From contig NJBI01000029.1 of the NCBI GenBank assembly GCA_005222975.1, positions 1 to 43,477 on the forward strand: a DNA stretch of 43,477 nt. The letters run 5' to 3'. The stretch comes from Promethearchaeota archaeon Loki_b31 (GTDB lineage Archaea > Asgardarchaeota > Lokiarchaeia > Sigyniarchaeales > SOKP01). This document shows positions 22,117-41,140 of this stretch, piece after piece (positions within the stretch are counted from its first letter, which is position 1; each line of letters begins with the position of its first letter). The notes below the pieces were generated by a model. That model worked only from the letters and a program-made list of their open reading frames with translations. It was not told where the DNA came from and did no database searches. The translations under genes and the position numbers were made by a program.

Positions 22117-22821
22117 CTATCTATTTTTAAGTAATTCAATTATTAACTTATCTCCATCTTTCAAATTATAATAATCTCTTAAATAAGGCTTCGCTAAGAT
22201 CTCTATTATGTTTTTTTCGTGATGAGTTCTTTTAATATCTAATATAGCAGCTTTTCGGCGATTATTTTTATCATCCATTCGGGAGATGTACACATCATAG
22301 CATTTAACAGCCCCGTATTCTCTACTTTGATCTTTAAACCCCTCAATTATAACTGGTGATATATTTTGTAGTTTTTCACGTAAAATTGTGTTTGTAGCAT
22401 CAGTTAATAATAAATTTAACGTACCTATATAAGGTTCGAAGCCTAATTTTTTTTTAAATTGATCATAATAACCTCTAATGGCAACATAATATCCACCTTC
22501 GTGTATACCCTCTACTACTTCGCCAACGATCAAAATTGACTCAAGGAGAGATTTCAAATTTTTATAAACTGTAAGCATAACATTAGTTCCTTCTTTAGTT
22601 ATTGATATCGTTTGTGTTTTACCATCAGTTTTTCTTTTGATCCAATTTAATTCAATTAACGCGTTAATTCTCCGACTCCCTGATTGTTGACTTAATCCTA
22701 ATATTTCACCAAATTTAATAGTGCTTATAGTAATATTACGCTTATTCTTTGTTAATCGACAAAGTTGATAAAGAGCAAACCAATTAACATAATTTTCCTG
22801 TGAGATTTCTTCTTCAGCCAA
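22117..22821 (-). CDS. ribK: CTP-dependent riboflavin kinase with N-terminal wHTH (RibK/RbkR-type)
   Basis: LGLSQQSGSRRI HTH; GEVVEGIHEGGYYV, LGFEPYIGTLN, RTHH..IIEILA..YLR. Confidence 0.9.
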   Translation of the reverse strand: MAEEEISQENYVNWFALYQLCRLTKNKRNITISTIKFGEILGLSQQSGSRRINALIELNWIKRKTDGKTQTISITKEGTNVMLTVYKNLKSLLESILIVGEVVEGIHEGGYYVAIRGYYDQFKKKLGFEPYIGTLNLLLTDATNTILREKLQNISPVIIEGFKDQSREYGAVKCYDVYISRMDDKNNRRKAAILDIKRTHHEKNIIEILAKPYLRDYYNLKDGDKLIIELLKNR

Positions 22822-22837
22822 TAGTCCACCAATAAGT

Positions 22838-23275
22838 TTATTTTTTTAATTGTTCTACAATTTTCTTTTTAATAAGACTAGAAGAGTGTAGTTTATATTT
22901 ATCATAATAAGTATCTAACCTTTTAACTGTTATGTGGGTCAGCCCTTTTTTTATTAATTCTCGTTTTAGTACTTCTATATCGTATTTTTGATCTGGTCCC
23001 AAGAGAATTATGTCTGGATTTATTTCTTCAACAGTTTTAAGCGTATCGTTATCAGATCTTCCTAATCTAGCTTCTTTTACATTTTTTATATTTTTTATTA
23101 CTTCTAATCTCTGATCTTCAGGTACTATTATTTGATAATTTTTAAATTTCTCTGCGTTTTTATCTGTAGATACTATGACATAGACATCACCCATTTTAGC
23201 AGCTTCTTGGATTAAGTATAAATGTCCTGGATGGAGCAGATCAAAAGTTCCAGCAATAAGTACTTTTTTAACGAT
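22838..23275 (-). CDS. ribL: FAD synthase / FMN adenylyltransferase (cytidylyltransferase family)
   Basis: Frame upstream of the track ATG (23194) encodes KKVLIAGTFDLLHPGHLYLIQEA with the HxGH motif; PDIILLGPDQ, SSSLIK. Start is ATC 23275, or ATG 23285 with a one-base error in an A8 run. Confidence 0.85.
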   Translation of the reverse strand: MVKKVLIAGTFDLLHPGHLYLIQEAAKMGDVYVIVSTDKNAEKFKNYQIIVPEDQRLEVIKNIKNVKEARLGRSDNDTLKTVEEINPDIILLGPDQKYDIEVLKRELIKKGLTHITVKRLDTYYDKYKLHSSSLIKKKIVEQLKK

Positions 23276-23319
23276 TTTTTTTCATCTCGTTTTAATGTAT
23301 TCAATTAAATTTTTAAAAA

Positions 23320-23940
23320 TTATTGAGATTTAAGACTTTTTTCCATACATCTTTTTAAATCATTCATTTGAAGGGAGATTGAAACGTCTCCTCTAGTTTT
23401 CTCTATTATACTTCTCGCTACATCTGTTTTGTGCCTTAAATCTTGAGTTAATCCAGAGGGGTAGTCAATCGAAAACAATTGCGTGTAGATATCATCCATA
23501 CTTTCTAAGATATAGTTTAGATCGTCTATAATAGAATTTCTAATATTATCTAACGCGTATCTTCGCAATTCTCCGATTACATCAGCAAGCCCTAAAGCAT
23601 AATTTAAAGGCGTTATGTTTAATTCACTAGGCAATGGAAGAGCCTCTTTTGAAATAATCGAATAAAACGCGACAGCTTCTGCGTATTCTTGTTCTGCAGT
23701 TTTTAAATACTTGGATAAAACGCCTGGATTATCTTTTACCAATAATAATAATTCTTTATGGTTTTGTTTTATAATTGAAACTTTTTCGCGATATTGATTA
23801 AATTCTTTTCGATGTATGTTCTTAATTGCAATACTACATTCCCGAATTATCCTTCTGGACATTTTGAGTATTTCTTCTCTATCTTGATCTAATTTATCCA
23901 GAACTTTTGTTAATTCAGAGAAAATATTTTTAAGCCTCAT
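23320..23940 (-). CDS. Translin/TRAX (C3PO)-family protein
   Basis: REEILKMSRRI, QEYAEA, YALGLADVIGELRR and LRHKTD motifs; acidic catalytic positions appear intact. Confidence 0.92.
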   Translation of the reverse strand: MRLKNIFSELTKVLDKLDQDREEILKMSRRIIRECSIAIKNIHRKEFNQYREKVSIIKQNHKELLLLVKDNPGVLSKYLKTAEQEYAEAVAFYSIISKEALPLPSELNITPLNYALGLADVIGELRRYALDNIRNSIIDDLNYILESMDDIYTQLFSIDYPSGLTQDLRHKTDVARSIIEKTRGDVSISLQMNDLKRCMEKSLKSQ

Positions 23941-24033
23941 TCTTATAAATAAATATTTTAGTAATAATTAATTTCAATTTTAAATTGTTAATTATCAAAA
24001 GGAAGAAAAATATTTAGGATTTTTGATATAATC

Positions 24034-26094
24034 ATGAAAATTTTATTAATTCACTCCGATGGGGTAGAAGTTATAAAAAATAAAGTAGCCACAAGCAATC
24101 CACAAGATTTTCCCGAAGATGTAATTAAAATGGAGGGCTTAATTTTAGTGGCTTATGTATCTGTAGAAGATCAAGATACATACGATACAGATTTGATTTC
24201 CAAACAAGGTGCTCAAGTGATAGAAGACGCAATAATTCAAATAACGAATTTTCCCGAAAAAATTAGACGTAAAAACGAAGAGATAAGAGAATATAATAAA
24301 AAGATTGAAAGTGGCCAAACTAAAGGGAAACCAAGAAAAATTCTTGAGTTAATAAAGGAAAGGGGTACTTATAGGGTTGATCAAGTATTAGTTTACCCTT
24401 GGGCGCATTTAAGCAAATTTCTTAGTAATGAATCAAACGCTATGGATGTTTGTCCCAAAATAGCAGAATTCTTAAAAGAAAAAGGTATAAAAGCGAAATT
24501 TTCTCCATTTGGTTGGTACAAATCTTTTAAAATAAACTGTATTGGTCACGAAGTAGCTGAGATGTACCGAGATGTAAAGTTATTTATTCAACCCGGAGAA
24601 CACATAGAAAACGCTGTGTTTAAAGTAATTACTCCCCAAGGAACTGAATTAGATTTAGAATTTGACGAAGACAAAAATGTCTTGCCCTTAAAAGAGGTTA
24701 AAGACGAAGATTTCCAGCTTTTCTTAGAATCTGAATTAGGAACGAAAAGAATAGACGAAGGAATCGAACCAGCTCATATCAAAGTAATGAAAGAATTTGA
24801 GCTTGTAGATTTCGATCCAAATACAGATGCGGGGAACCTCCGTTGGTACAGTAAAGGAATGATCATGAAAAACTTGATCAAAAGTTTTGTGGAAGATAGG
24901 ATAATTGATTATGGCGCTATTCTTATTGACACTCCTCTTATGTATACGACTAAAAACAAAAAGTTAACCGCCCAAACTGCACGTTTTCCAGCGAGGAGTT
25001 ATTGGGTTGAATCGGGAAATGATAGGTATATATTAAGATATGCTTCTGATTTCTTACTTTTTGATTTATTAAGCTCTATGAATTTAAAACCTCATTATTT
25101 TCCATTAAGAATATATGAATGGGAACAATATTCCTTTAGACGGGAAATGAAAGGAGAACTTACAGGTTTGAGAAGGTTAAGAAGTTTTGTAATGCCTGAT
25201 ATGCACACATTATGCAAAGATGTAAAGTCCTCCGTAGAAGAATTTAAAAGTCAATACTTCTTAATAAAAAATCTTTTAGAAGACCTGGGAATAAAATCTT
25301 ATATAATTTTCAGAGCAACTCAAGATTTTTATAGAGAAAACAAGAAATGGATTAAAGAATTGATAAAGAAAGAAGGACAACCAGCTTTATTAGAATTATG
25401 GGAAGAACGGTACTTTTACTTTGTTTTAAAATTCGAAAGACCAGTCCTCTCAGCTCAAAATAGAAGCGCTACACTCTCAACTAACCAAATTGACCTAGAA
25501 AGCTCGCTTGAATATATGTTCGATAACAAAGGAATAAAGAGACTAAAATATGACATTCATTTTACAGATATTGATGGTATAAAGAAGTATCCTGTAATTC
25601 TTCACAATTCTCCAACGGGGGGGCTAGAAAGAATTTTATGGGGGTTGATTGAAACAGCTGTTAGGGATAAGGACAAAATTATTCCCGGATTTAAGACGTG
25701 GATATCCCCTATACAAGTAAGAATTATCACAGTTAGTGAAGATCAGAAAGAATACGCTGAAAAAGTTTTGGAGATTCTCAGCAGAGAATTTTACAGAGTA
25801 GATTTTGATGATAGAGATGAGAAATTAGGAAAAAAAATTCGACAATCCGAAATAGAATGGATACCATATACAATAATATTAGGTAAAAAAGAGCAAGAAG
25901 CTCAAACCATTTCGGTACGAAAAAGATTAATCGGTCAACCTATTGGCCCAAAAAAAGGCACTTCAAAAAATATAAACGATATAAAATTAAGCGAACTACT
26001 GGAAATGCTCGACGACGACACGAAAGGGTTCCCTAAACACAAATTACCAAAACCTTTTAGACGATTTTCAACCAAAGTGTATTTTAGAAAGTAA
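24034..26094 (+). CDS. thrS: Threonyl-tRNA synthetase, archaeal type with N-terminal editing domain
   Basis: MKILLIHSD, YPWAHLS, PFGWYK editing domain; FRREMKGELTGLRRLRSFVMPDMH motif 2; ILHNSPTGGLER motif 3; anticodon-binding domain. Confidence 0.96.
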   Translation: MKILLIHSDGVEVIKNKVATSNPQDFPEDVIKMEGLILVAYVSVEDQDTYDTDLISKQGAQVIEDAIIQITNFPEKIRRKNEEIREYNKKIESGQTKGKPRKILELIKERGTYRVDQVLVYPWAHLSKFLSNESNAMDVCPKIAEFLKEKGIKAKFSPFGWYKSFKINCIGHEVAEMYRDVKLFIQPGEHIENAVFKVITPQGTELDLEFDEDKNVLPLKEVKDEDFQLFLESELGTKRIDEGIEPAHIKVMKEFELVDFDPNTDAGNLRWYSKGMIMKNLIKSFVEDRIIDYGAILIDTPLMYTTKNKKLTAQTARFPARSYWVESGNDRYILRYASDFLLFDLLSSMNLKPHYFPLRIYEWEQYSFRREMKGELTGLRRLRSFVMPDMHTLCKDVKSSVEEFKSQYFLIKNLLEDLGIKSYIIFRATQDFYRENKKWIKELIKKEGQPALLELWEERYFYFVLKFERPVLSAQNRSATLSTNQIDLESSLEYMFDNKGIKRLKYDIHFTDIDGIKKYPVILHNSPTGGLERILWGLIETAVRDKDKIIPGFKTWISPIQVRIITVSEDQKEYAEKVLEILSREFYRVDFDDRDEKLGKKIRQSEIEWIPYTIILGKKEQEAQTISVRKRLIGQPIGPKKGTSKNINDIKLSELLEMLDDDTKGFPKHKLPKPFRRFSTKVYFRK

Positions 26095-26122
26095 CGCGCG
26101 AATTGCGTATATATGGTGATGT

Positions 26123-26752
26123 ATGATTACAAAAATAAAGTGTGTTATTATCGATTTAGGAGATGTAATTATTGATTTAGATTTTAGTAGGTTCTTTAAT
26201 GAGGTAATAACTCCATCTCCTTTGAATAAACCTAAAACTCCAATAATGTTAGAATTTTTTCGTCAATCAGATACTTATCACCAAGGTAGAATAACAGATA
26301 AAGAGTTCTACCAACAAGCTTGCGAATTGCTTGAAGTATGTGCTCTTAATCAAACTGAGTTTTATAACGCGTTTAATAGTATTATTGCAGACCTCAATCT
26401 AGATATGGTTGATTTAATTAGAAATATTAAGACTTTAAATAATTTAAAGATAATATGCATGTCAAATATTAATTCTAGTCATTGGACTTATTTGAAAAAA
26501 CAAAAATGGAATATTTGGGAGCTTTTTGACGAATTTATTCTCTCGCATGAAATACACATGACAAAACCGGACCCGAAAGTTTTCGAGTATGCTTTAAAAA
26601 TAGCAGGGTGTAAACCAGAAGAAATTATATTTATTGACGATGGTTTTAATAACGTTCGATCAGCTCGGGTATTAGGAATAAATTCAATAAGATTTATCGG
26701 ATTGGATAATTTGGTTGAAGAGATCCAAAAGTTCGACATAAAGGTAGGCTAG
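26123..26752 (+). CDS. HAD-family phosphatase (YihX-like)
   Basis: IIDLGDVI, MSN, KPDP, FIDD motifs I-IV. Confidence 0.9.
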   Translation: MITKIKCVIIDLGDVIIDLDFSRFFNEVITPSPLNKPKTPIMLEFFRQSDTYHQGRITDKEFYQQACELLEVCALNQTEFYNAFNSIIADLNLDMVDLIRNIKTLNNLKIICMSNINSSHWTYLKKQKWNIWELFDEFILSHEIHMTKPDPKVFEYALKIAGCKPEEIIFIDDGFNNVRSARVLGINSIRFIGLDNLVEEIQKFDIKVG

Positions 26753-26797
26753 AAGGGTTGAATGATTAAATAGGGTATTGAATTTTATCTTACGCTG

Positions 26798-27322
26798 TTA
26801 TTTCCCAATATTAATGTTATCTAAACATGCTCGAGCTAATTTCTCAAAAGCTAGTTCAACATTATCTCCCGTTTTAGCAGAAGTTTCTAAATACTCGCAA
26901 TTTAATCGTTTTGCCAAGTCTTCTGCCTCACTCCTCTCAATTTGGCGTTCTAAATCGTTCTTATTTCCGACTATAAGTATAGGTATTGACTTTTTAACTG
27001 TTTTCTTTATACTGCTAATCCATCCAGGGAGTTTTAAAAGAGATTGAGGCGAAGTTAAATCGAATACTCCAAATGCCGCATTACTCCCCTTAAAATAGAT
27101 CGTACGTAGTTTTGCAAACTGATCTTGTCCGCCTATGTCCCAGAGTAGTAGCCTAATGTTCTGTTCGTTAATCAGAACATCCTTTATCAAGAAATTCGAA
27201 CCAATGGTTTGTTTTAAATCGGAACTAAAATAATCTTTTATATATCTGACGAGTAGGGATGTTTTACCTACACTCCCAGGTCCAAACAAACAAACTTTAA
27301 ATTTTAACGACGATTCTCCCAA
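26798..27322 (-). CDS. Rab-like small GTPase
   Basis: G1 GPGSVGKTS, G2 TIG, G3 WDIGGQ, G4 NKND, G5 ETSAK; no C-terminal prenylation motif. TTG 27322 follows SD GGTGA (track start 27334). Confidence 0.93.
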   Translation of the reverse strand: MGESSLKFKVCLFGPGSVGKTSLLVRYIKDYFSSDLKQTIGSNFLIKDVLINEQNIRLLLWDIGGQDQFAKLRTIYFKGSNAAFGVFDLTSPQSLLKLPGWISSIKKTVKKSIPILIVGNKNDLERQIERSEAEDLAKRLNCEYLETSAKTGDNVELAFEKLARACLDNINIGK

Positions 27323-27546
27323 TGATTTCACCAACGGGTTGCGATTATTTCTCTTAGGTTGAGGATGTTCAAAAATTCATCCTTACTAAGGAGAACATTT
27401 ACTATTTTTATTTTATTACTTTTACTATATTCAATATTATCTTAAAGATATTTATATGTTTAGGATTGTAAATTAATACTGGCTGGTACTTCAAAAGAAA
27501 AAAGTAGTAAGGAAAAAATATTTTTGAGTTTGTGTAAATTTTTAAT

Positions 27547-28818
27547 CTATTTTTTTCGTTTCTTCTTCCCAATTCCCCCCATAGCAGCCATTAGCCATTC
27601 GGGACTACCGACTCCATTTGCATATTCCATCCAAATATACATTAAGAAGCCCATAAAACCGACATAAGTTATGTTTATAATGAGGAAAAGTATAACATCG
27701 AATTGTCCAATAAATAAACCAAGAAATAGCTGGTGCACAAAAAATAGACTTAACGAGACTTTACCGTAATATACTAGCATTTTAACGAAAATACCATATT
27801 TCTTCTTGATATCAATAAAATAAAAGCAGATGGCTATTATTAAAAGCGCAGCACCTAAATTATAAAACATGTTTGGGCCTCTACCTCTGATTAAAAACTC
27901 AGGCATTCCGGGAATTACAAAATATTTTTGGTCATTTGCTACACTTAATAAGATCATGTGAGGATATTCTCGGAGTCCACCTGGTATTGAAGATTCAGTG
28001 TACAATTGAGAACCTAAACCAATACCTACCGCTACCAAGATAATACCCCAGACCATAAAAATTCGAAATAAACCAACATACGCATCGTCAGTCCCCTTAT
28101 TCATTGCTTCGTAGAGATATTCTCCAAATATAGTAGAAATAAAACAGATAGCAAGACCTGGAAGGAGGGGTACCATGGGGTTTGGTCCGATTACTATAAA
28201 ATGAATTACGATTACGATTAAATTATCCGCTTCCAATCCTGGAACAAAAATTAGGTCTCTAATCACATTTGAAAATACTACGATTAAAATAGCAATAATG
28301 CCACGATAAAACTTAGTTAATTTTAAAGCGTAAAATGAAAAGATCTGTGAAGCGCCTATAAACATTAGGATGTTCCAACCCCAAAGGCTTAAAGGGAATG
28401 GTACGCCAAATCCATCCAAAGTTAGGGATACAACATTATAAATCATCGCTATTAGGATAATCATCGCGCCTCTCGAGAAAATTCGCATGCGAATTACTTT
28501 AGGAGGGAGTATGTTTTGCTTATTTTTTATGCTGAAAATTACGCTTAGAGACGAAAGAAAAACAAATAGCGATGGGCCAAGGAAATCCATTAATAAAAAT
28601 AATATTCCGTAAACATATTGGTTTTCACTGTTTAACCAAGCGCTACCCGAATGCGCTAATATAATAAAAACAATTGCGAAACCTTTTACAAAATCAATGC
28701 TTCCAATTCGTTTTGGCGAAGCAAAATCCCTGATATCTTCTAATGGGATTAATTCTTGCAAATAATTGAACAGTGGAGGAGATTCAGTTGCCCTTCCTAA
28801 TTCATTTTCAATCGATAT
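27547..28818 (-). CDS. Multi-pass membrane acyltransferase (HGSNAT/DUF1624-like), paralog 1 (probable ATA start)
   Basis: RIGSIDFVKGFAIVFIILAH, WNILMFIG, YYGKVSLSLF, SPEW; similarity to the paralog extends upstream of TTG 28761. Confidence 0.82.
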   Translation of the reverse strand: MSIENELGRATESPPLFNYLQELIPLEDIRDFASPKRIGSIDFVKGFAIVFIILAHSGSAWLNSENQYVYGILFLLMDFLGPSLFVFLSSLSVIFSIKNKQNILPPKVIRMRIFSRGAMIILIAMIYNVVSLTLDGFGVPFPLSLWGWNILMFIGASQIFSFYALKLTKFYRGIIAILIVVFSNVIRDLIFVPGLEADNLIVIVIHFIVIGPNPMVPLLPGLAICFISTIFGEYLYEAMNKGTDDAYVGLFRIFMVWGIILVAVGIGLGSQLYTESSIPGGLREYPHMILLSVANDQKYFVIPGMPEFLIRGRGPNMFYNLGAALLIIAICFYFIDIKKKYGIFVKMLVYYGKVSLSLFFVHQLFLGLFIGQFDVILFLIINITYVGFMGFLMYIWMEYANGVGSPEWLMAAMGGIGKKKRKK

Positions 28819-28956
28819 TTTTCACCAATTAAAATTATTACTTGAAAATTATAGAATATTCTTGTCTTATGAAAATTTAAACTTTATCATAAAAGAAAAA
28901 TTGAGATAAGAAATTAAAAATTGTTGAAAATTTTATTAGAAATTATTTGTATCGAC

Positions 28957-30330
28957 TTATTCTTCTGAACCTTTATCGCGTTCGTGTTTTATTTTATGAA
29001 CTGTTTCCTTTATTTCTTCTTCTATTATGCGTATTTCCTTCTTAAAAGTATCCCCTGTCTTCTGTCCAATTCTCCCAATTTGGACCATAATCCATTCTGG
29101 AGAACCCGCGCCGCCATAAAACTCGTTCCATACATACATTAAAAAACCCCAAAATCCCAAATAACCAAAAACAACGAATACTAAAGCAACCAAATTGAGA
29201 GAACTTAAAAAGAGTGTAATAAATATAAAATGTAGCAAAAACAAACTCAACGACACTTTTCCATAGTAATTCACCATGGATATAAAAACATTCATTTTCC
29301 TTTTTATGTCGATAAAATAAAAACTAATGGCAATGAGTAAAAGCGCAGCTCCTAAATTATATATCATGTTAGGCGCTCGTCCTCGAATTAAGAACTCCCA
29401 CATCCCAGGATATGTAATCTCGGGGAAGATACTTTGTGTTTGCATTATATTTAAGAGATCTATATGAGGATACTCATTTAAAGGAAGTTCACTGGTTGTA
29501 AAACCTCCGGGAACATATGCATTGCTACCTAAAAAAATGCCAGTAAGAACAAGGAAAATCCCCCAATATAAAAAGGTTCGAAATAACTTTTTATAATCTT
29601 TTTTCGTTCCTCCAACCATGGCTTCATACAAATATTCTCCAAAAATCGAAGAAAGAAAACATATCGAAAGCCAGGGTAATAATGGGGTCATAGGCGAAGG
29701 TGAAACTATTATATAGTGAAAAATAGAGATTATTACATCTCCTGCTTCTTTTCCTTGAAAAAGCCAAAATCGAATATTATCAGAAGTAAAAATAATAAAT
29801 AGACCTATTACTGCTCGAGCGATTTTACTAAGTTTTAAAGCGTAATAAGAAAATATCTGTGAAGCGCCTATAAACATTAGGATGTTCCAACCCCAAAGTG
29901 TGGCGGGAAAGGAATACCCTTCAATTGTGAACTCAATAGAAATTAAATTGAATATAACTGCTATTACAATAATCATTATTCCTCGAGAAAAAATTCTATT
30001 TCTTATGACCTTTTCTGGTAAAGTTCCCTTTTTTCGCCGAATACTAAAAACCACACTTAAAGCGGATAAAAAAACAAATAAAGATGGACCGAGAATGTCA
30101 AGAAAAGAAAGCGCTATCCCATAGAGAAATATCCAAGTAGAATCAAGCCACGCACCTGCTGTATGAGCTATTATTATAAAGACGATCGCGAATCCTTTGA
30201 CGAAATCTATGCTCCCAATACGCCTTACAGACGAGAAATCCCTCAGTTCCTCGACCGGGATCGCTTGCTTTAAATAATCTAAAAGGTGTATCGAGTCCAG
30301 ATCAATTTCTTTTTCTTTTTCCGATGACAT
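28957..30330 (-). CDS. Multi-pass membrane acyltransferase (HGSNAT/DUF1624-like), paralog 2
   Basis: Same motifs as paralog 1, plus a charged C-terminal extension. Confidence 0.82.
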   Translation of the reverse strand: MSSEKEKEIDLDSIHLLDYLKQAIPVEELRDFSSVRRIGSIDFVKGFAIVFIIIAHTAGAWLDSTWIFLYGIALSFLDILGPSLFVFLSALSVVFSIRRKKGTLPEKVIRNRIFSRGIMIIVIAVIFNLISIEFTIEGYSFPATLWGWNILMFIGASQIFSYYALKLSKIARAVIGLFIIFTSDNIRFWLFQGKEAGDVIISIFHYIIVSPSPMTPLLPWLSICFLSSIFGEYLYEAMVGGTKKDYKKLFRTFLYWGIFLVLTGIFLGSNAYVPGGFTTSELPLNEYPHIDLLNIMQTQSIFPEITYPGMWEFLIRGRAPNMIYNLGAALLLIAISFYFIDIKRKMNVFISMVNYYGKVSLSLFLLHFIFITLFLSSLNLVALVFVVFGYLGFWGFLMYVWNEFYGGAGSPEWIMVQIGRIGQKTGDTFKKEIRIIEEEIKETVHKIKHERDKGSEE

Positions 30331-30446
30331 TTCAGTTCAATATTTTTTTTGTAGTTCTATTTTAAGACTTAAATTAATATTACTATTTTAGTTTATACTA
30401 TTTGAATGTTTTTTTAAATATAAAAACCGTATAAACATAAAAAATT

Positions 30447-30854
30447 ATGAATATCAAAAAATATTTAGATTTTCGTTTGTTAGGATTAACTGGCTCGATA
30501 TTATTGATAATATCACAATTTTTATCTTGGTTCTCTAACCAATCTTTATTATGCATATATATTATTACAACGAGTGTAGCAATTGAAGATTCTTTTTTAT
30601 ATCTATTTCCTTTAATTAGCGGAATAATCTGTTTAGTTGGAACGGGTTTAATCGTTTATAAAATAGATTATAGAATTAATTCTGTAATAATTAATTTCGT
30701 TGGGTTGGGTTTTTTTTTGATATTTATTTTTGAAATCGTCACAAAAGAATTCATTTATCTTCCTACCGCCCAAATAGGTTTTTACTTTTCAATTATAGGC
30801 TCGATATTAATATTCTTCGATATTTTAAACGTCCTTATAATAAAGGAAAGCTAA
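30447..30854 (+). CDS. Four-TM hypothetical membrane protein
   Basis: FLSWF motif after TM1, four hydrophobic segments, IGFY motif. Confidence 0.75.
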   Translation: MNIKKYLDFRLLGLTGSILLIISQFLSWFSNQSLLCIYIITTSVAIEDSFLYLFPLISGIICLVGTGLIVYKIDYRINSVIINFVGLGFFLIFIFEIVTKEFIYLPTAQIGFYFSIIGSILIFFDILNVLIIKES

Positions 30855-30873
30855 GTGAGAAGGGGATCAAGCA

Positions 30874-31770
30874 ATTAGTGAAAAAGAAGAAACACATACG
30901 GAAAACGCTAAAAATTACGATGCTGAGGCTAATTTTTACTATGCCTTGGGCCATGGACTTAGGAGAAAGATTATAAACATTATTGGAGAGAATAAATTTA
31001 CTTCGTTCACATATCTTAAAAAAGAATTAAAGGTAAGTACAGGTACGATTTACCACCATTTAGATACTCTGTCTCATTTAATTGAACAACGTGATGATAA
31101 GAAATATTACTTAACTGAATTGGGACTCCATGCTTACAATTCGTTAAAGGATAACATAAATACAATCATTACTCCTGATTTTAGCAAAAAAGAATTTAGT
31201 TCGCCAATTTTGAAAGGATTAATGCGCTTGACTCCAAAAAAATATATTAATTACGAAAGCAACCAAATGATTTATACGATAATAATCTCAATTACGACTG
31301 CTTTAATAGGGGCAATATTTTGCGGTCTGAACGGTTTATTTCCTTTATTTCTCTTTTTTGGGCAATCTATAATAGAATTCGAATTTATTGAACCAATTCT
31401 TCAAATAATATTTGCAATTATATTTATAGGCAATATTGTTTTCTTTTTTCTAATTAACGAAGGCATAAGTCGCATAATTTATAAAAAAAAAGAAAATACC
31501 TTGAAATTTTTAATTTCTTTTCCCATTATTTTTTTTCCTTTAGATATTTACTTAGTATTGCATTTTATCTTATTCTCTACAGGTTCTTTAAATTTACCAG
31601 CAGTTAGAATATTAGATAATGTGCTCGTAATTTTATTCCAAGTATTGTCTTTATGGTTGTTAACATATAATTTAAGTGTGAATAAAAAGTTAAAAATTGA
31701 AAAATCGTTAATTATTTCGCTGTTGATCCACTACGGAGGTTTTTCTATTATCCTTCTACTTTCTATTTAA
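30874..31770 (+). CDS. ArsR-like wHTH fused to a multi-pass membrane domain (probable ATT start)
   Basis: FYYALGHGLRRKII..SFTYLKKEL..STGTIYHHLDTL..YYLTELG; first helix lies upstream of TTG 30946; about 5 TM helices follow. Confidence 0.82.
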   Translation: MSEKEETHTENAKNYDAEANFYYALGHGLRRKIINIIGENKFTSFTYLKKELKVSTGTIYHHLDTLSHLIEQRDDKKYYLTELGLHAYNSLKDNINTIITPDFSKKEFSSPILKGLMRLTPKKYINYESNQMIYTIIISITTALIGAIFCGLNGLFPLFLFFGQSIIEFEFIEPILQIIFAIIFIGNIVFFFLINEGISRIIYKKKENTLKFLISFPIIFFPLDIYLVLHFILFSTGSLNLPAVRILDNVLVILFQVLSLWLLTYNLSVNKKLKIEKSLIISLLIHYGGFSIILLLSI

Positions 31771-33082
31771 TCGTTTTAAAATTGTAGTCGTCAAAAATCT
31801 TAATAATTTTAGAAATTCTTTTCTCTGAAGAATCTAAATCCTTTGTTTTCGTTGCTATAAAACAATAATACAATAAATCTCGATCCACAACCGATTTACT
31901 TAAAGCAATTGGGGGTGTTACTATTTCTGGAATCACGCTCATTAATTTTGGGATAATGGTATTCATTATATTTTTGAACGATTTATTTCCAGAGTATTTC
32001 AATTCTAATCGAGTGAAATGTGAAAACTTATTTGGCTCTAATTTTGTTAATTCAAATTTAGATTTATATTGATTAAATAGGAATTCTAGAGGATTATAAT
32101 CCAATATGTTCCTAATACCGATATATGATGTAGTTAATCTTGGGTTAATCTCTATAAAATAGATAGAATTATCCTCTTTTTTTATGAAATCTATTCCAAA
32201 ATATCCCTGGAAACTTTTTAAGTCCATGGATTTTAAAATCTTTTCGAATTTATTTCTTAAAACTTTATAATTTTCTACTGGAGTAAAGCCTCCTAAGTAG
32301 AGAGAATCTTTATTGGGATCTAGATTTTGTACATTTTGAGCATTTAAACTCAGAATTATTTGATCCATGGCGTCAGTCTTTTCAGGGTTAGTTCTGTTAA
32401 TTATAGAAATACTTAAATCATCGCCATCAATATATTCTTGAACTATATAGCTTCTAGCTGTATCAAGTTTTGCTTTAGGCCTTTCAAATAACTGTAAAAT
32501 CTGATCTTTAGTTGTAAAGTGAAATAGTAATTCCGATCCTGCACCATCTTCGGGTTTCATTATTATGGAACTACCGAACTGATCAAATTTTTGAAGTATG
32601 AAATCTACATCCATCTCTCCTCCTTTTAAAGGGACTTTATAGGTTTTTGGAGTGTTGACTTTATTAGCTAAAAAATATTTGTAAGTCTCTAGCTTAGATG
32701 TTCCCAACCAAACACCGTTTAAATCTATACTTAGAATTTTCTTTTTAAGATCTTTTGCTATTTGAGTAAGTTTATAGAGGTGCTTTGAAAATTCTGGGGC
32801 AATAATAAAACAATAAATACATTCATTTAAGCAATCTGTATAAACTTTTATATAGTCATCATTCTTTCTAACTAGTTTTATTTTATCTGCTTTTAAATAT
32901 TGAGATAAAAAATCAATCCTAATATCTAATAATGTAGTAACTTGAAAACCTAAAAAAAAAAAATCTTCTATAATAGTCCTTAGCATTGCATAACCTTCAT
33001 TAAATAAAGATGGCGGAATATCGACCTGATTAAAACCTCCTCCAGAGGCAAATTCAAAGACAAATATTTTTTGATTAATCAT
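31763..33082 (-). CDS. ATP-grasp ligase, tyramine--L-glutamate ligase (MfnD)-like
   Basis: FEFASGGG, EGYAML, IIAPE, KPEDGAGS, VQEYIDG, YLGG, GYFGID, IEINPRLTTSYIG. Confidence 0.8.
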   Translation of the reverse strand: MINQKIFVFEFASGGGFNQVDIPPSLFNEGYAMLRTIIEDFFFLGFQVTTLLDIRIDFLSQYLKADKIKLVRKNDDYIKVYTDCLNECIYCFIIAPEFSKHLYKLTQIAKDLKKKILSIDLNGVWLGTSKLETYKYFLANKVNTPKTYKVPLKGGEMDVDFILQKFDQFGSSIIMKPEDGAGSELLFHFTTKDQILQLFERPKAKLDTARSYIVQEYIDGDDLSISIINRTNPEKTDAMDQIILSLNAQNVQNLDPNKDSLYLGGFTPVENYKVLRNKFEKILKSMDLKSFQGYFGIDFIKKEDNSIYFIEINPRLTTSYIGIRNILDYNPLEFLFNQYKSKFELTKLEPNKFSHFTRLELKYSGNKSFKNIMNTIIPKLMSVIPEIVTPPIALSKSVVDRDLLYYCFIATKTKDLDSSEKRISKIIKIFDDYNFKTIK

Positions 33083-33175: not shown

Positions 33176-34423
33176 GTGTGGAATATGACTTTTTTTACAA
33201 ACGAGATAATGCAGCGTATTCGATATCTGCATTATAAAATAAAGAAAATTGAAGAAGCTTTAGAAAAAGAAGAAGAAAGTGTTAGTTTAGACGATTTAAA
33301 CCTTGTTTTAGAGTACACTAAAATTTTAAACATTAACTATCAAAATGAAGACCAAATTAAAATTTTAAAAGATTTAGACATCACACCGAATTTTTTAGAA
33401 CCTTTAGACAACAACAAGGAAATTCAAATAAGAGATTTAATGTTTGAGTGTGCACGTACTTTATGGGTGATGGCAAGAGCCTATTCTCATATCTCAGAAA
33501 AATTTGAAGATAAGGAAGATTGGGAGGATGCGATAATAGCGATGGTAGAATGCAGCAAAATGTATAAAACTGCTGCGTATTTTAGTGCCGCATCTATTAA
33601 TCAGACTGAATTAGGAGTAACTCTTTCATCTGAAAATCTCGAATTGAATTCAGAGGAGGCTCGAATTTTAGCACAAAGTATTGCGGCATTAAAGGAAGAA
33701 AATTCTTATAATATTTATTTCGCTTCAAAATTATACTCGGGATTAAGCTCTTTATCAAAAAGATTATTTTATTTGAAAAAACACGACGAGAAGAAAAAAC
33801 AACAATTAAGAGCTCAATTTCACTTTGATATGGGTAAAGCTTGCAATCTTAAAGCTCAAGCTTCGTTAGAATCTTCGATTACAAATATTAATAAAGACAA
33901 AGTTAGAAAGTTACAACAAAAAGCAAATTTCTACTACGAAAAATCTAAAGAAATCTGGAAGGAAATGCTCCAAGAGTTATCTGATTTATCAAGCGAAGAA
34001 AAAAGCAATATTGACGGCAATTTGGCTATTGTTACGGATATATTGAAAGAAAACCAAATGGATGTTTTAAATTACGACGAGATTAAAAGAATTCAGGATC
34101 CTGAACCAATTATTATTATCCCAGAAAATTTAGCACCGTTCGTTCCAAAAAGCACCATATATTTAACCAAATTTGTACCTAAGGATTTAAACATTAAGAG
34201 GTTTAAAACGTTCCAAAAAAGGAAACTGGAACAAAAAATACCGTATAGTAAACGAGAGCGATTGATAGACAAAAAAGCTGGTATCGTAAGAACTATTAGT
34301 GAATTGAAAGTGCTAAAAGAGAATAAGGAAATTGAAGTGGAAAAATTTGCAGAACTTATGGAAAAATATTCTACTAAACTTAAAATGTGCGACACCGCAT
34401 TAGAAAAATTAGCTAAATTGTAA
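33176..34423 (+). CDS. Alpha-helical protein, Bro1/ALIX-like domain plus C-terminal helical hairpin
   Basis: Colinear by-eye similarity to Bro1 blocks (see findings). Start likely ATG 33185. Confidence 0.6.
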   Translation: MWNMTFFTNEIMQRIRYLHYKIKKIEEALEKEEESVSLDDLNLVLEYTKILNINYQNEDQIKILKDLDITPNFLEPLDNNKEIQIRDLMFECARTLWVMARAYSHISEKFEDKEDWEDAIIAMVECSKMYKTAAYFSAASINQTELGVTLSSENLELNSEEARILAQSIAALKEENSYNIYFASKLYSGLSSLSKRLFYLKKHDEKKKQQLRAQFHFDMGKACNLKAQASLESSITNINKDKVRKLQQKANFYYEKSKEIWKEMLQELSDLSSEEKSNIDGNLAIVTDILKENQMDVLNYDEIKRIQDPEPIIIIPENLAPFVPKSTIYLTKFVPKDLNIKRFKTFQKRKLEQKIPYSKRERLIDKKAGIVRTISELKVLKENKEIEVEKFAELMEKYSTKLKMCDTALEKLAKL

Positions 34424-34480
34424 TTCAAGAAAATTTATTTTTATTTAAAATTTTTAATTATACTGATTTAGCTAATCTTC

Positions 34481-39883: not shown

Positions 39884-41140
39884 TTGATGAGCGGAAGAGA
39901 CACTAGTAATAATGATGTAGATGACAATATCGCTGAACAAAACGAAAACGAGAAAGAAGATAATGAAACATTGACTACTAAATCAGATGATATTATTGAA
40001 TTATCAACAAAAGAACATCATATTCAAAAATATGGTTTTGATCCAGCGGAAACTCCTACATTTATTTCATACAACGCATATAGGCGAATTATTGGCTACG
40101 CAATGCGATATGGAAATAAAGATTTACCTCAAAAAACTTGGCGTGAAGTTTATGGAATTCTAATAGGCTCGATAAAAGATAACAAAGAAGTTATCATTAA
40201 AGATGCAATCCCCGTGATGGTTGGTGATAGAGCCTATGTTGAATATAAAAGCAAACATTATGTAGATACAGCACAATTTAACACGGCAGTCTATGAAAGA
40301 TCTATCCAAGATAATAAAGAAGAGTTCTTTGTAGGGTGGTGGCATACACACCCAGGTATTGGCTTTATATTTTCGCCTAGAGATATTGAAACGCAACTGT
40401 TTTATCAAGGTGTAAATCCTTTTGCTATAGCTTTAGTGTTTGATCATTGTGAAATAGGTTCTAGTACTTATTACTTAGGAATTGCGGGAATAAGGCTAAA
40501 GAACCCAGATCGCGGCATGTTTGCTACTTATTCTAATACTATAGAACTAAAATTTGAATTAAGTAAAGAAAAAATGGTAAAAAACGCTGAAAAAGAAGTT
40601 AAAAAAATTTTTAAAAACATGAAAAATGTTTTAAAGGAAGTTAAGTATATTGATGATATTTTACGACGAAGGTATTTGGCTCAACTCCAGAGAAACTTTG
40701 GTCTCATTACGGTCTTGAAAAAAGAGATTAAATTAACTGATGAAGAAAAAGAAGCTGAAGAGGATGACTATTACTTATACGAATGGGATCCTGATATTGA
40801 CAAAAAAATTTATAGAATCCCTAAATTTAGAGAAAAAATAGAAAAAGAACTTAAAAAATGCGAAGATAATCTAATTCAGATAAAGAAAACTAATCAAATG
40901 AAAGATTTTGAACAAAAGAAAGATAAATTTAAAAAAAAAATTAAAGCAATGCTAGCCAAGCCGAATGAATGGCATAAAAAACTAATGAACGAGTTTACTA
41001 AGCGTATTGAAATTATTTCTCCTCTTTTTGATTATTTAGATACAGATGAAAGGAAAATAATTGAACACTTTGAGGAAAGAAGTTCTGATTATAAAAAGAT
41101 ATTAGACGATCTTAATTCTCGTTCAGAATTTAATATTTGA
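39884..41140 (+). CDS. Rpn11/CSN5-like JAMM isopeptidase with long C-terminal coiled-coil region
   Basis: REVYGILIG, VGWWHTHPGIGFIFSPRDIETQ, ALVFD; acidic N-terminal extension; K/E-rich helical C-terminal half. Confidence 0.88.
   Translation: MMSGRDTSNNDVDDNIAEQNENEKEDNETLTTKSDDIIELSTKEHHIQKYGFDPAETPTFISYNAYRRIIGYAMRYGNKDLPQKTWREVYGILIGSIKDNKEVIIKDAIPVMVGDRAYVEYKSKHYVDTAQFNTAVYERSIQDNKEEFFVGWWHTHPGIGFIFSPRDIETQLFYQGVNPFAIALVFDHCEIGSSTYYLGIAGIRLKNPDRGMFATYSNTIELKFELSKEKMVKNAEKEVKKIFKNMKNVLKEVKYIDDILRRRYLAQLQRNFGLITVLKKEIKLTDEEKEAEEDDYYLYEWDPDIDKKIYRIPKFREKIEKELKKCEDNLIQIKKTNQMKDFEQKKDKFKKKIKAMLAKPNEWHKKLMNEFTKRIEIISPLFDYLDTDERKIIEHFEERSSDYKKILDDLNSRSEFNI

Follow-up and report, generated by a model that had tools for sequence, protein, structure and literature searches.

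A very divergent Bro1-like domain followed by a steadiness-box-type hairpin is predicted in a conserved Lokiarchaeial protein

Models and homolog searches support the view that residues ~4–325 form a true, though highly diverged, Bro1 domain in a protein encoded by the Lokiarchaeial genome of Promethearchaeota archaeon Loki_b31, and profile comparisons indicate that the C-terminal helical hairpin of the same protein resembles the steadiness boxes of Asgard archaea. The gene lies in a stretch of 43,477 nucleotides (GCA_005222975.1, contig NJBI01000029.1), here called the window. The Bro1-like gene is real and shows strong conservation within a single family of Lokiarchaeia, and we found no publication describing this protein family.

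The gene and the parts of its product

The features discussed below are as follows, with residues in the numbering of the 415-codon reading frame.

31763..33082, minus strand: divergently transcribed neighbour, ATP-grasp gene (Pfam ATP-grasp_3 and preATP-grasp_3); context, not a demonstrated partner
33176..34423, plus strand: open reading frame opened by GTG, 415 codons
33185..34423, plus strand: probable coding sequence of the Bro1-like/steadiness-box protein, ATG at 33185, stop at 34421-34423, 412 aa
33185..34150, plus strand: predicted Bro1-fold domain, residues ~4-325 (AF2 model, Foldseek, VIA-align, ESM Atlas)
33389..33427, plus strand: predicted small beta-hairpin, residues 72-84 (NFLE ... 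KEIQ; strands E72-75 and E81-84 by DSSP on the model)
33437..33775, plus strand: four-helix core with the highest conservation, residues 88-200 (alignment A1 and per-helix conservation)
34097..34150, plus strand: extended Pro-rich segment QDPEPIIIIPENLAPFVPK, residues 308-325 (alignment A1 and model)
34166..34243, plus strand: basic, poorly conserved linker, residues 331-356 (low-confidence model)
34244..34417, plus strand: steadiness-box-type helical hairpin at the C-terminus, residues 357-414 (helices H357-382 and H388-414 of the model)

The reading frame that the first-pass annotation had placed at 33176-34423 was confirmed in its position and length, and the match of the family profile to the genome spans 33179-34417. 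The true start is probably the ATG at 33185, since close homologs, which are 412–414 aa long, begin at MTFF. That annotation had also described the product as all-helical and of no obvious family. The latter holds in that direct searches of Pfam and NCBIfam by hmmscan and of PDB sequences by phmmer returned no match to the window protein, while the former stands for almost the whole of the AF2 model and fails for one small beta-hairpin formed by residues 72-75 and 81-84. Short contigs at 95–99% identity from three libraries recorded as metatranscriptomes fall inside the reading frame and, as DNA carry-over is possible in such libraries, give a weak hint of its expression in close relatives.

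Structural evidence for a Bro1 fold

The AF2 model of the window protein (pLDDT 85.5, pTM 0.75) was compared with known structures in two independent searches, both headed by Bro1 domains only. All of the first 21 matches in Foldseek were to Bro1, BROX, HD-PTP or ALIX (E 1e-6 to 1e-3), after which the ranking fell to designed repeat proteins at E about 1e-2. A VIA-align search of 48,161 representative chains gave Z-scores of 22.3, 22.2, 22.0, 21.3 and 20.9 for all five Bro1 representatives (HD-PTP, yeast Bro1, ALIX twice, and BROX), with 275–301 residues aligned at an rmsd of 3.5–4.4 Å within model residues 1..325, and the next fold scored 11.7. In the ESM Atlas, BRO1 clusters came first in the fold search (TM 0.55–0.58 to ALIX, BRO1-like and rhophilin clusters) and headed the language-model feature search, whose score of 0.84 we treat as a lead only. 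Sequence identity to the solved Bro1 domains is 10–16%. These results support the hidden Bro1/ALIX-type fold proposed in the first-pass annotation, which had named a generic TPR/SNAP solenoid lacking the small beta-sheet as the outcome that would speak against it; the model instead has the beta-hairpin and scores Z 20.9–22.3 against Bro1 domains vs 11.7 for the next fold. The annotation had further aligned blocks with ALIX by eye, and these blocks are consistent in order and extent with the structure-based pairing of model residues 4-323 with ALIX 19-345, and likewise with the way an ortholog described below maps onto the Pfam profile.

A model of a 511-aa homolog from a third Asgard lineage matched the same five Bro1 chains at Z 23.9–26.3, with the next fold at 12.1; this model is not fully independent, because its alignment included the family of the window protein.

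Sequence evidence through homologs

Profile signal for BRO1 is significant but below threshold, and reaches the window protein only by way of its homologs. The protein itself had no match to Pfam BRO1 even at E ≤ 10, a search of the whole genome with PF03097 found no Bro1, and neither the family profile nor the ortholog P0150 (the latter by phmmer) retrieved a Bro1 chain from PDB sequences. P0150, a syntenic ortholog with 30% identity, matches Pfam BRO1 at E 3.2e-8 (33.3 bits; cut-off 35.1), its residues 9-182 corresponding to profile positions 33-208, and carries a PF03097 flag in precomputed tables. The 511-aa homologs score 19.5 and 17.7 bits (E 5e-4 and 2e-3) on a different but colinear stretch of the BRO1 profile. 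No family member reached the 35.1-bit cut-off in the scans run here. Profile searching, which had been proposed as a check on the Bro1 assignment, therefore yielded matches for two divergent sets of homologs, though none for the window protein. We consider the fold assignment supported because the model matches, the BRO1 match of P0150 and the 511-aa homolog all point to Bro1.

Conserved elements of the Bro1-like domain

The small beta-hairpin at residues 72-84 falls inside the region aligned to known Bro1 domains and is the counterpart of their small sheet. It is followed by the best conserved part of the protein, the four helices at 88-200, in which conservation is 0.63–0.68 per helix compared with 0.38–0.58 elsewhere. 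Invariant or near-invariant residues in this core (alignment A1) are D87/E91, K131/A133/F136, E156/E160/R163/A166/Q167 and G189/L190/R196, and R163, Q167 and G189 are also retained in the 511-aa homologs of the third lineage. The conservation marks the four-helix core as a candidate ligand-binding face; the matching helices in ALIX are presumably those that bind its ligands, the CHMP4 site included. The residues invariant throughout the family (E91, F136, Q167 within LAQ, and G189/L190 within ASxLYxGLS) also stand in the right order for what we take to be the Bro1 signature blocks, namely a Glu after the hairpin, AAxxF, LAQ and an AKL-type helix.

At the other end, the Pro-rich segment at 308-325 has invariant P311, P316, E317 and P324 and no regular secondary structure in the model. 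It lies within the range aligned to Bro1 domains and closes the Bro1-like domain. Beyond it, the linker has the lowest conservation of the protein (0.38), with pLDDT < 50 at 334-344 and 351-356.

The C-terminal hairpin

The two helices of the hairpin, which form an antiparallel pair of ~60 residues, were modelled with a pLDDT of ~90. In hhalign, the hairpin matched a set of five Asgard steadiness-box hairpins, one of which belongs to a protein matching UQ_con/UEV and Vps23_core, with a probability of 96.8% and an E-value of 2.2e-10. A re-run scored 45.2, whereas the controls gave 9.2 ± 2.2 (shuffled columns), 13.2 (reversed) and 10.9 (an ESCRT-III hairpin); an effect of composition can be ruled out because the controls, which overall scored 9–16, lie so far lower. 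Searched with the family profile, another lineage also yielded hairpins of this type, with E-values from 3e-7 to 5e-5; a match at 5e-5 was to the steadiness box of a protein of Vps23 type (UEV/Vps23_core) that is encoded beside Vps28 and Vps22 genes. Direct comparison with Vps23_core (PF09454) gave no match, PF09454 run across the genome did not match the hairpin either, and the hairpin profile run against the genome found only itself and no other steadiness-box protein at E ≤ 0.1.

The hairpin superposes on yeast Vps23 (2caz_D) with an rmsd of 0.9 Å over 59 residues, on TSG101 (6vme_B) with 1.9 Å and, in VIA-align, on 2p22_A; its shape is not distinctive, since equal Z-scores of 9–10 are reached by CdvA, by integrase coiled coils and by numerous other hairpins. 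A few family members have weak Pfam CdvA or SHOCT matches, CdvA in two of them. The first-pass suggestion that the C-terminus is a steadiness-box or CdvA-like hairpin thus gains support from the hhalign result and, in those few members, from the weak Pfam matches.

Distribution and genomic neighbourhood

Within its own Lokiarchaeial family, profile searches found the Bro1-like gene in 127 of 134 genomes, with best E-values mostly of ~1e-170 to 1e-188, and 747 homologs of the window protein had E ≤ 0.001 among the candidates scored. The models and homologs indicate that the Bro1 fold occurs in Lokiarchaeia and that at least two other lineages of Asgard archaea have it too. Many genomes also have paralogs bearing an N-terminal helix-hairpin-helix (HhH) module and a Lys-rich linker. 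The distribution of the family is patchy. No Bro1-like region is present in the sister family, which nevertheless has ESCRT-IIIB, and the Bro1-like protein is therefore not an obligatory part of the ESCRT machinery.

The neighbours of the gene in the window are the ATP-grasp enzyme, membrane proteins and NifU. The divergent ATP-grasp/Bro1-like pair recurs at the orthologs P0150 and P0153, and gene order, including the ATP-grasp gene and a winged helix-turn-helix (wHTH) membrane protein, is kept around these orthologs, which are only 27–30% identical. The two genes co-occur: three lineages have both, and two genomes of the sister family yielded neither. In a lineage where it is unlinked from the Bro1-like gene, the ATP-grasp gene adjoins HisA-like and epimerase genes, so its product probably acts in metabolism and the linkage probably reflects no more than gene order; we accordingly do not read it as a functional partnership. 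No similarity was found between the 274-aa wHTH membrane protein of the window and a 323-aa neighbour of a long paralog.

ESCRT genes adjoin the Bro1-like gene neither in the window nor beside any ortholog examined. The first-pass annotation, too, had noted that no ESCRT genes were adjacent. The genome does encode ESCRT-IIIA (208 aa, contig C14), ESCRT-IIIB (216 aa, contig C77), Vps4, Vps22, Vps28-like and PH-CC-SB proteins, all on other contigs. A Vps25-like reading frame was assigned by position and sequence only.

A possible link between ESCRT-I-type proteins and ESCRT-III

The reading that we favour, and hold to be fairly probable, is that of a two-module adaptor in which a Bro1 domain and a steadiness-box-type hairpin would couple ESCRT-I-type recognition to ESCRT-III, both binding steps being inferred. 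The Bro1 module (~4-325) would consist of a TPR-like helical solenoid, the small beta-hairpin and the Pro-rich closing strand, and the flexible basic linker would join it to the hairpin (~357-414). Steadiness-box hairpins keep the headpiece of ESCRT-I assembled, and the one in the window protein may plug into a bundle of such hairpins from the Vps23-, Vps28- and Vps22-type proteins of the archaeon, while the conserved Bro1 face would hold the C-terminal helix of an ESCRT-III subunit. Recognition of cargo or site by ESCRT-I-type proteins would then be coupled directly to ESCRT-III, much as ALIX/Bro1 couples cargo or site recognition to ESCRT-III in eukaryotes. The binding to ESCRT-III tails and the route parallel to ESCRT-II that the first-pass annotation suggested are likewise proposals.

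The ESCRT-IIIB tail in this genus contains DDLQY[IL]SEFD, with an LxxLxxF pattern that we take to be akin to the [MLI]xxLxxW motif of CHMP4. We dropped this CHMP4-type motif as a sign of co-evolution because an acidic-hydrophobic tail segment, in other forms, also occurs in lineages without the Bro1-like gene, and because in a related genus, which does carry the gene, the ESCRT-IIIB tail has a different sequence. A complex prediction for the Bro1-like domain (1-332) and the ESCRT-IIIB tail (160-216), both given with alignments and run without controls, gave a score of 0.00 (mark 0.32) and counts neither way.

It is rather unlikely, but deserves serious weight, that the protein has a true Bro1 fold and binds a ligand other than ESCRT-III, acting as a scaffold tied to its neighbours (the wHTH membrane protein, the ATP-grasp enzyme or a Ras-type GTPase) or in a DNA-linked role of the kind suggested by the HhH paralogs. 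The gene never has an ESCRT neighbour, its association with the ATP-grasp and wHTH membrane protein genes has been kept over deep divergence, paralogs with HhH modules and Lys-rich linkers occur in many genomes, and the sister family has ESCRT genes without the Bro1-like protein, all of which would fit such a role. The unlinked ATP-grasp copy, however, probably reduces that part of the neighbourhood to gene order, and the C-terminal hairpin specifically resembles the steadiness boxes found in ESCRT-I-type proteins of Asgard archaea. In addition, to our knowledge every characterised Bro1 domain (ALIX, Bro1, HD-PTP and BROX; cf. the PDB titles 3c3o, 3um3, 3um1 and 5mk2) binds ESCRT-III tails. 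Far less probable is a convergent TPR-like solenoid with a generic coiled-coil hairpin, homologous to neither Bro1 nor steadiness boxes, for although the low identity to solved Bro1 domains, the want of a Pfam or PDB sequence match for the window protein, the frequency of middling Z-scores among helical repeats and the shared alignment behind the third-lineage model would allow the likeness to be an artefact of helical repeats or of the predictor, the Z-scores of 21–26 are about twice those of the best unrelated helical repeats (11.7 and 12.1) and extend over the whole domain, hairpin and closing strand included, two divergent groups of homologs match different, colinear parts of the BRO1 profile, the language-model search independently ranks BRO1 clusters first (as a lead), and the hhalign controls exclude a composition effect for the hairpin.

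Comparison with known systems

On the evidence of the model, the two-module protein shares with eukaryotic Bro1 domains (PF03097) a fold of ~280–300 residues that includes the beta-hairpin, the TPR-like core and the Pro-rich closing segment; the structures compared were yeast Bro1 (1zb1), human ALIX/PDCD6IP (2oew, 2xs1 and 3c3o), HD-PTP/PTPN23 (3rau) and BROX (3um3 and 3zxp). The first ~15–35 residues of the eukaryotic domains have no counterpart in the window protein, in which the alignment begins at ALIX 19 and yeast Bro1 35, whereas the 511-aa lineage does have one, its alignment beginning at ALIX 13. The V domain, Pro-rich region, PTP domain and CaaX box of eukaryotic Bro1 proteins are likewise absent, and a steadiness-box hairpin stands in their place. 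We know of no eukaryotic protein that combines a Bro1 domain with such a hairpin.

With the ESCRT-I steadiness box (Vps23/TSG101 core, PF09454) the protein shares an antiparallel hairpin of ~60 residues, for which profile–profile comparison also indicates a likeness to the Asgard examples; it differs in giving no direct PF09454 match, and known steadiness-box proteins have a UEV, Vps28-C or winged-helix module where the window protein has a Bro1 domain. CdvA of Thermoproteota, an ESCRT-III recruiter, differs in its PRC-barrel and winged-helix-binding tail, in contrast to the Bro1 domain found here. Its likeness to the window protein is confined to a helical hairpin of the same type (PF18822; 9s9g; Z 9.7, rmsd 1.0 Å). 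Steadiness-box hairpins have been described in Asgard Vps23, Vps28, Vps22 and Znr_PH_CC_SB proteins (PMC10936438; PMC9192718). ESCRT proteins of MK-D1 are reported to have been expressed heterologously, in yeast or human cells (bioRxiv 10.1101/2025.11.01.685982).

Eme et al. 2023 (PMC10307638) list 'Bro1' matches for Asgard archaea, and their text names Hodarchaeales, Njordarchaeales and Thorarchaeia; their proteins and the present family are alike in being claimed as Bro1-related ESCRT accessory proteins of Asgard archaea. Rows of their supplement place Heimdallarchaeaceae and Njordarchaeales proteins of 75–85 aa under PF18097, which is Vta1_C in the Pfam copy used here, and the proteins in those rows do not belong to the present family because they are too short for a Bro1 fold of ~320 residues. 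The most thorough survey to date, published in 2024, stated that Bro1 was not identifiable in Asgard archaea (PMC10936438).

Significance

Bro1/ALIX is among the few core ESCRT parts without an accepted archaeal counterpart. A real Bro1 fold in Lokiarchaeia and at least two other Asgard lineages would place the origin of the module before the last eukaryotic common ancestor, or would point to an old transfer. As a broader reading, which we put forward tentatively and would not presume, Asgard archaea may already have linked ESCRT-I to ESCRT-III by a short cut resembling that of ALIX but built differently, with Bro1 wired into the ESCRT-I headpiece through its own hairpin and paralogs carrying an HhH head of DNA-binding type; the Bro1 branch would then predate eukaryotes, in which it would later have been re-wired, the hairpin giving way to the V domain and to motifs of PSAP/PTAP type. 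A single genome supplies the set of proteins for binding assays, comprising the Bro1-like protein, ESCRT-IIIA and ESCRT-IIIB, and the hairpins of the Vps23-, Vps28- and Vps22-type proteins, and the fusion of Bro1 with a steadiness box offers a testable wiring by which early ESCRT-I and ESCRT-III may have been coupled without ESCRT-II.

The Bro1-like gene and its relatives

The first-pass annotation had described a 415-aa protein of no obvious family at 33176..34423 (+), and an open reading frame of 415 codons from a GTG is present there. An ATG lies at 33185, nine bases 3' of the GTG, and because the closest homologs are 412–414 aa long with an MTFF N-terminus, the coding sequence of the gene is most likely 33185–34423 (residues below are numbered in the 415-aa ORF). 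Searches of Pfam, NCBIfam and PDB chain sequences with the protein by itself found nothing significant, so the earlier description of its family status was right. The window is AT-rich, with a G+C content of ~28–30% around the gene, and a 111-codon antisense ORF fully nested in the gene, 34093..34428 (-), is probably a chance frame in such DNA.

Judged from its sequence relatives, the ORF is a real, conserved gene. Among the candidates scored in a word-seeded search, 747 proteins matched at E <= 0.001; the best 120 of these are 81–97% identical across 97–99% of the length, derive, where named, from Lokiarchaeota or Promethearchaeota MAGs and are always annotated as "hypothetical protein". Run exhaustively over 1.84 billion cluster representatives, phmmer matched 55 clusters. 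When the family profile was run over 400 genomes of the phylum, matches were found in 127 of the 134 genomes of the window's own Lokiarchaeial family (best E mostly ~1e-170 to 1e-188), in none of 14 from the sister family that belongs to the same order, and in all five genomes of one distant family (E 1e-17 to 1e-23). The remaining genomes had scattered matches near 1e-6, and the matches of that strength that were inspected, in the distant and sister families, covered the C-terminal hairpin only.

Many genomes of the window's family combine a short form with long forms of 600–790 aa, giving two or three paralogs each; the window's genome (92% complete) has the short form only. The long paralogs, one or two per genome in most genomes of that family and often in tandem, have an N-terminal HHH_5 helix-hairpin-helix, a long Lys-rich low-complexity linker, the Bro1-like domain and the hairpin, in that order (e.g., proteins P0122, P0124, P0125 and P0126; loci L007–L009, L011–L013 and L045 in other genomes). 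Contigs of 152–369 nt that are 95–99% alike to parts of the ORF (window 33248–34254) occur in three libraries recorded as metatranscriptomes (marine sediment, other metagenomes). The best DNA holders carried only ~40% of the sampled words, and therefore the exact strain is absent from the indexed runs.

Predicted fold of the N-terminal domain

An AlphaFold2 model, for which an alignment (A1) of 19 diverse family members was the input, had a mean pLDDT of 85.5 and a pTM of 0.75.

Features of the AlphaFold2 model of the Bro1-like protein
Long helices: eleven
Residues 72–75 and 81–84: one beta-hairpin
Pro-rich segment: extended
Residues 334–356: linker, low confidence
Residues 357–382 and 388–414: C-terminal helical hairpin

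In this model, residues 1–325 adopt the Bro1 fold. Foldseek comparison with the PDB returned Bro1 domains at all of ranks 1–21, the best being yeast Bro1 (1zb1, E 1e-6, TM 0.52/0.58) followed by BROX, HD-PTP and ALIX, and then designed repeat proteins at ~1e-2. In a comparison with 48,161 representative chains by VIA-align, which works independently of Foldseek, all five Bro1 representatives took the top places, with matches covering model residues 1–325.

Top VIA-align matches of the model
3rau_A (HD-PTP): Z 22.3, 283 residues aligned, rmsd 4.1 A
1zb1_B (yeast Bro1): Z 22.2, 275 residues aligned, rmsd 3.5 A
2xs1_A (ALIX): Z 22.0, 286 residues aligned, rmsd 4.2 A
2oew_A (ALIX): Z 21.3, 283 residues aligned, rmsd 3.5 A
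3um3_A (BROX): Z 20.9, 301 residues aligned, rmsd 4.4 A

The first non-Bro1 entry was NatC at Z 11.7, and since chance Z scores for helical repeats reach ~13, the gap between it and the Bro1 chains (20.9–22.3) is decisive. The first-pass suggestion of a hidden Bro1/ALIX fold is thus supported by both structural searches. A fold search of the ESM Atlas found the protein's own archaeal cluster (TM 0.73), automatically named "putative BRO1 domain-containing protein", then ALIX, BRO1-like and rhophilin clusters (TM 0.55–0.58), with TPR proteins below 0.4; BRO1 clusters also headed a language-model feature search at 0.84, a score that provides a lead only.

Sequence matches to the Pfam BRO1 profile were obtained with homologs. 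P0150, a 405-aa protein with 30% identity to the window protein (phmmer E 6.6e-29) and a precomputed PF03097 flag, aligned through residues 9–182 to BRO1 positions 33–208 at E 3.2e-8 and 33.3 bits, below the 35.1 cut-off. The ~511-aa homologs of the distant family, whose family-profile match (E 1e-17 to 1e-23) is confined to positions 9–315, matched BRO1 positions 189–287 (E 4.9e-4 and 1.8e-3), which is colinear with, but other than, the part matched by P0150. A model of a ~511-aa homolog, confident across residues 50–350, aligned with the same five Bro1 chains at Z 23.9–26.3 over 309–317 residues (ALIX 13–347), the next fold being at Z 12.1; this model is supportive and not fully independent because its alignment included the window's protein family. 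Compared with the window protein, the ~511-aa proteins (L019:1345–2877, L020:1342–2871 and L021:1342–2874) have a Bro1 fold that is more complete, with the alignment starting at ALIX residue 13, and are without the steadiness-box hairpin. Their Bro1 fold is followed by an acidic EDAVEV repeat and a small low-confidence region with beta strands and a final helix.

The C-terminal hairpin

The hairpin superposed on the Vps23 steadiness box 2caz_D with an rmsd of 0.9 A over 59 residues, and 2p22_A and 6vme_B (Vps23/TSG101) also fitted; CdvA, phage integrase coiled coils and many others fitted equally well (Z 9–10), and shape in the model does not by itself decide whether this is a steadiness box. 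Pfam Vps23_core did not match the hairpin, and weak matches to Pfam SHOCT or CdvA were found for a few family members. In the distant genome family, the Bro1-like family profile matched hairpins of several ESCRT-type proteins.

Hairpins of the distant family matched by the Bro1-like family profile
Hairpin 1: protein with UQ_con/UEV and Vps23_core matches, adjoining VPS28 and EAP30 genes
Hairpin 2: Zn-ribbon...steadiness-box protein, adjoining an ESCRT-III gene
Hairpin 3: CDC48-N...steadiness-box protein

When the family hairpins (alignment A3) were compared profile to profile with five Asgard hairpins of this kind (A4), the probability over 58 columns was 96.8% (E 2.2e-10). In the control runs this comparison scored 45.2, against 9.2 +/- 2.2 (maximum 15.9) for 60 column-shuffled versions, 13.2 for the reversed alignment and 10.9 for the helical hairpin of ESCRT-IIIB. 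These comparisons support the proposed steadiness-box resemblance, and with moderate confidence the C-terminal tail can be assigned from its sequence as a steadiness-box-type hairpin.

Gene neighbourhood and ESCRT genes

By synteny, P0150 and P0153 are orthologs of the window's gene: upstream on their contigs are Translin, riboflavin kinase, a Ras/Arf GTPase, a ~139-aa gene, a ~302–316-aa gene and a divergent ATP-grasp gene, and the window shares these genes and their order. The order of this block (window 22117–33082) is kept beside 27–30% identical orthologs in other Asgard lineages.

Conserved block upstream of the Bro1-like gene
22117–22821: riboflavin kinase
23320–23940: Translin
26798–27334: Ras-family GTPase
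30447–30854: 135-aa ORF
30946–31770: wHTH membrane protein
31763–33082 (-): ATP-grasp gene (preATP-grasp_3 and ATP-grasp_3)

In the window, some of the block genes are separated by two acyltransferase-type membrane genes (27547–30330), ThrRS and a HAD hydrolase. With the window query, the ATP-grasp gene was not found in two sister-family genomes, neither of which has the Bro1-like gene. The distant family, in which a Bro1-like gene occurs, does have the ATP-grasp gene, adjoining HisA-like and epimerase genes; this co-occurrence is drawn from very few, related genomes. A 418-aa protein with a JAB/MPN (JAMM deubiquitinase-type) domain is encoded at 39884–41140 (+), 5.5 kb downstream of the Bro1-like gene and separated from it by unrelated genes. 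JAMM enzymes act with ESCRT in eukaryotes.

The genome's ESCRT genes are on other contigs, as the first-pass remark that none is adjacent had it. Contig C14 carries ESCRT-IIIA (best PDB sequence matches CHMP2A, CdvB and CHMP1B) adjoining Vps4, on whose far side are Vps22 (EAP30) and a Vps25-like gene, the latter assigned from position and sequence only. C77 carries ESCRT-IIIB (L002:1396–2043 (-); alignment A2), whose match to 9fn1_U, a "Vps20/32/60-like" chain, has E 3e-93 and which adjoins a gene for a PH-like...coiled-coil...steadiness-box protein; a Vps28-like gene is on C59. In the tail of ESCRT-IIIB, a P-x-DDLQY[IL]SEFD segment (LxxLxxF) is conserved and precedes a MIM1-like final helix, KL.DEI.KLRKELE; in other lineages the place of the conserved segment is taken by different acidic-hydrophobic segments.

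Relation to previous reports and proposed role

According to an earlier survey of these archaea (PMC10936438), Bro1 could not be identified in Asgard genomes. Many multidomain proteins containing steadiness boxes were described by Makarova et al. Eme et al. 2023 (PMC10307638) report "Bro1" as the best domain in Hod-, Njord- and Thorarchaeia, and in the part of that source covered here, the "Bro1" rows of supplementary file 5 are 75–85-aa proteins under accession PF18097, which is Vta1_C in the Pfam copy used. Label and accession are thus mismatched in those rows, and the proteins listed there are a different thing from the window's family. In full-text literature searches that paired Bro1/ALIX with Asgard, Lokiarchaeia or steadiness box, the Bro1-like family was nowhere described.

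Overall, the earlier interpretation is supported for fold and domain composition: a conserved gene encodes a Bro1 fold that a flexible basic linker connects to a steadiness-box-like hairpin. From model and sequence, we interpret the gene as encoding an archaeal Bro1 domain in a Bro1 plus steadiness box architecture. This architecture is not known from eukaryotes.

The main rival explanation is that the Bro1 scaffold has been put to another use, in favour of which are the missing ESCRT linkage at the locus, the sister family being without the gene although it has ESCRT-IIIB, and the existence of HhH-bearing paralogs. A function as an ESCRT-I/ESCRT-III linker is a well-motivated inference by analogy. 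Conservation in the Bro1 domain peaks on the face formed by helices 88–200 (invariant E91, F136, E160, R163, Q167, G189, L190 and R196 in A1), and this face would hold the C-terminal helix of ESCRT-III. This is because all characterised Bro1 domains, to our knowledge, bind ESCRT-III tails, and the equivalent helices in ALIX presumably form the CHMP4 site. Potentially, the hairpin inserts among the bundled steadiness-box hairpins of ESCRT-I-type proteins, and the protein would then couple ESCRT-I-type recognition directly to ESCRT-III in the fashion of ALIX/Bro1.
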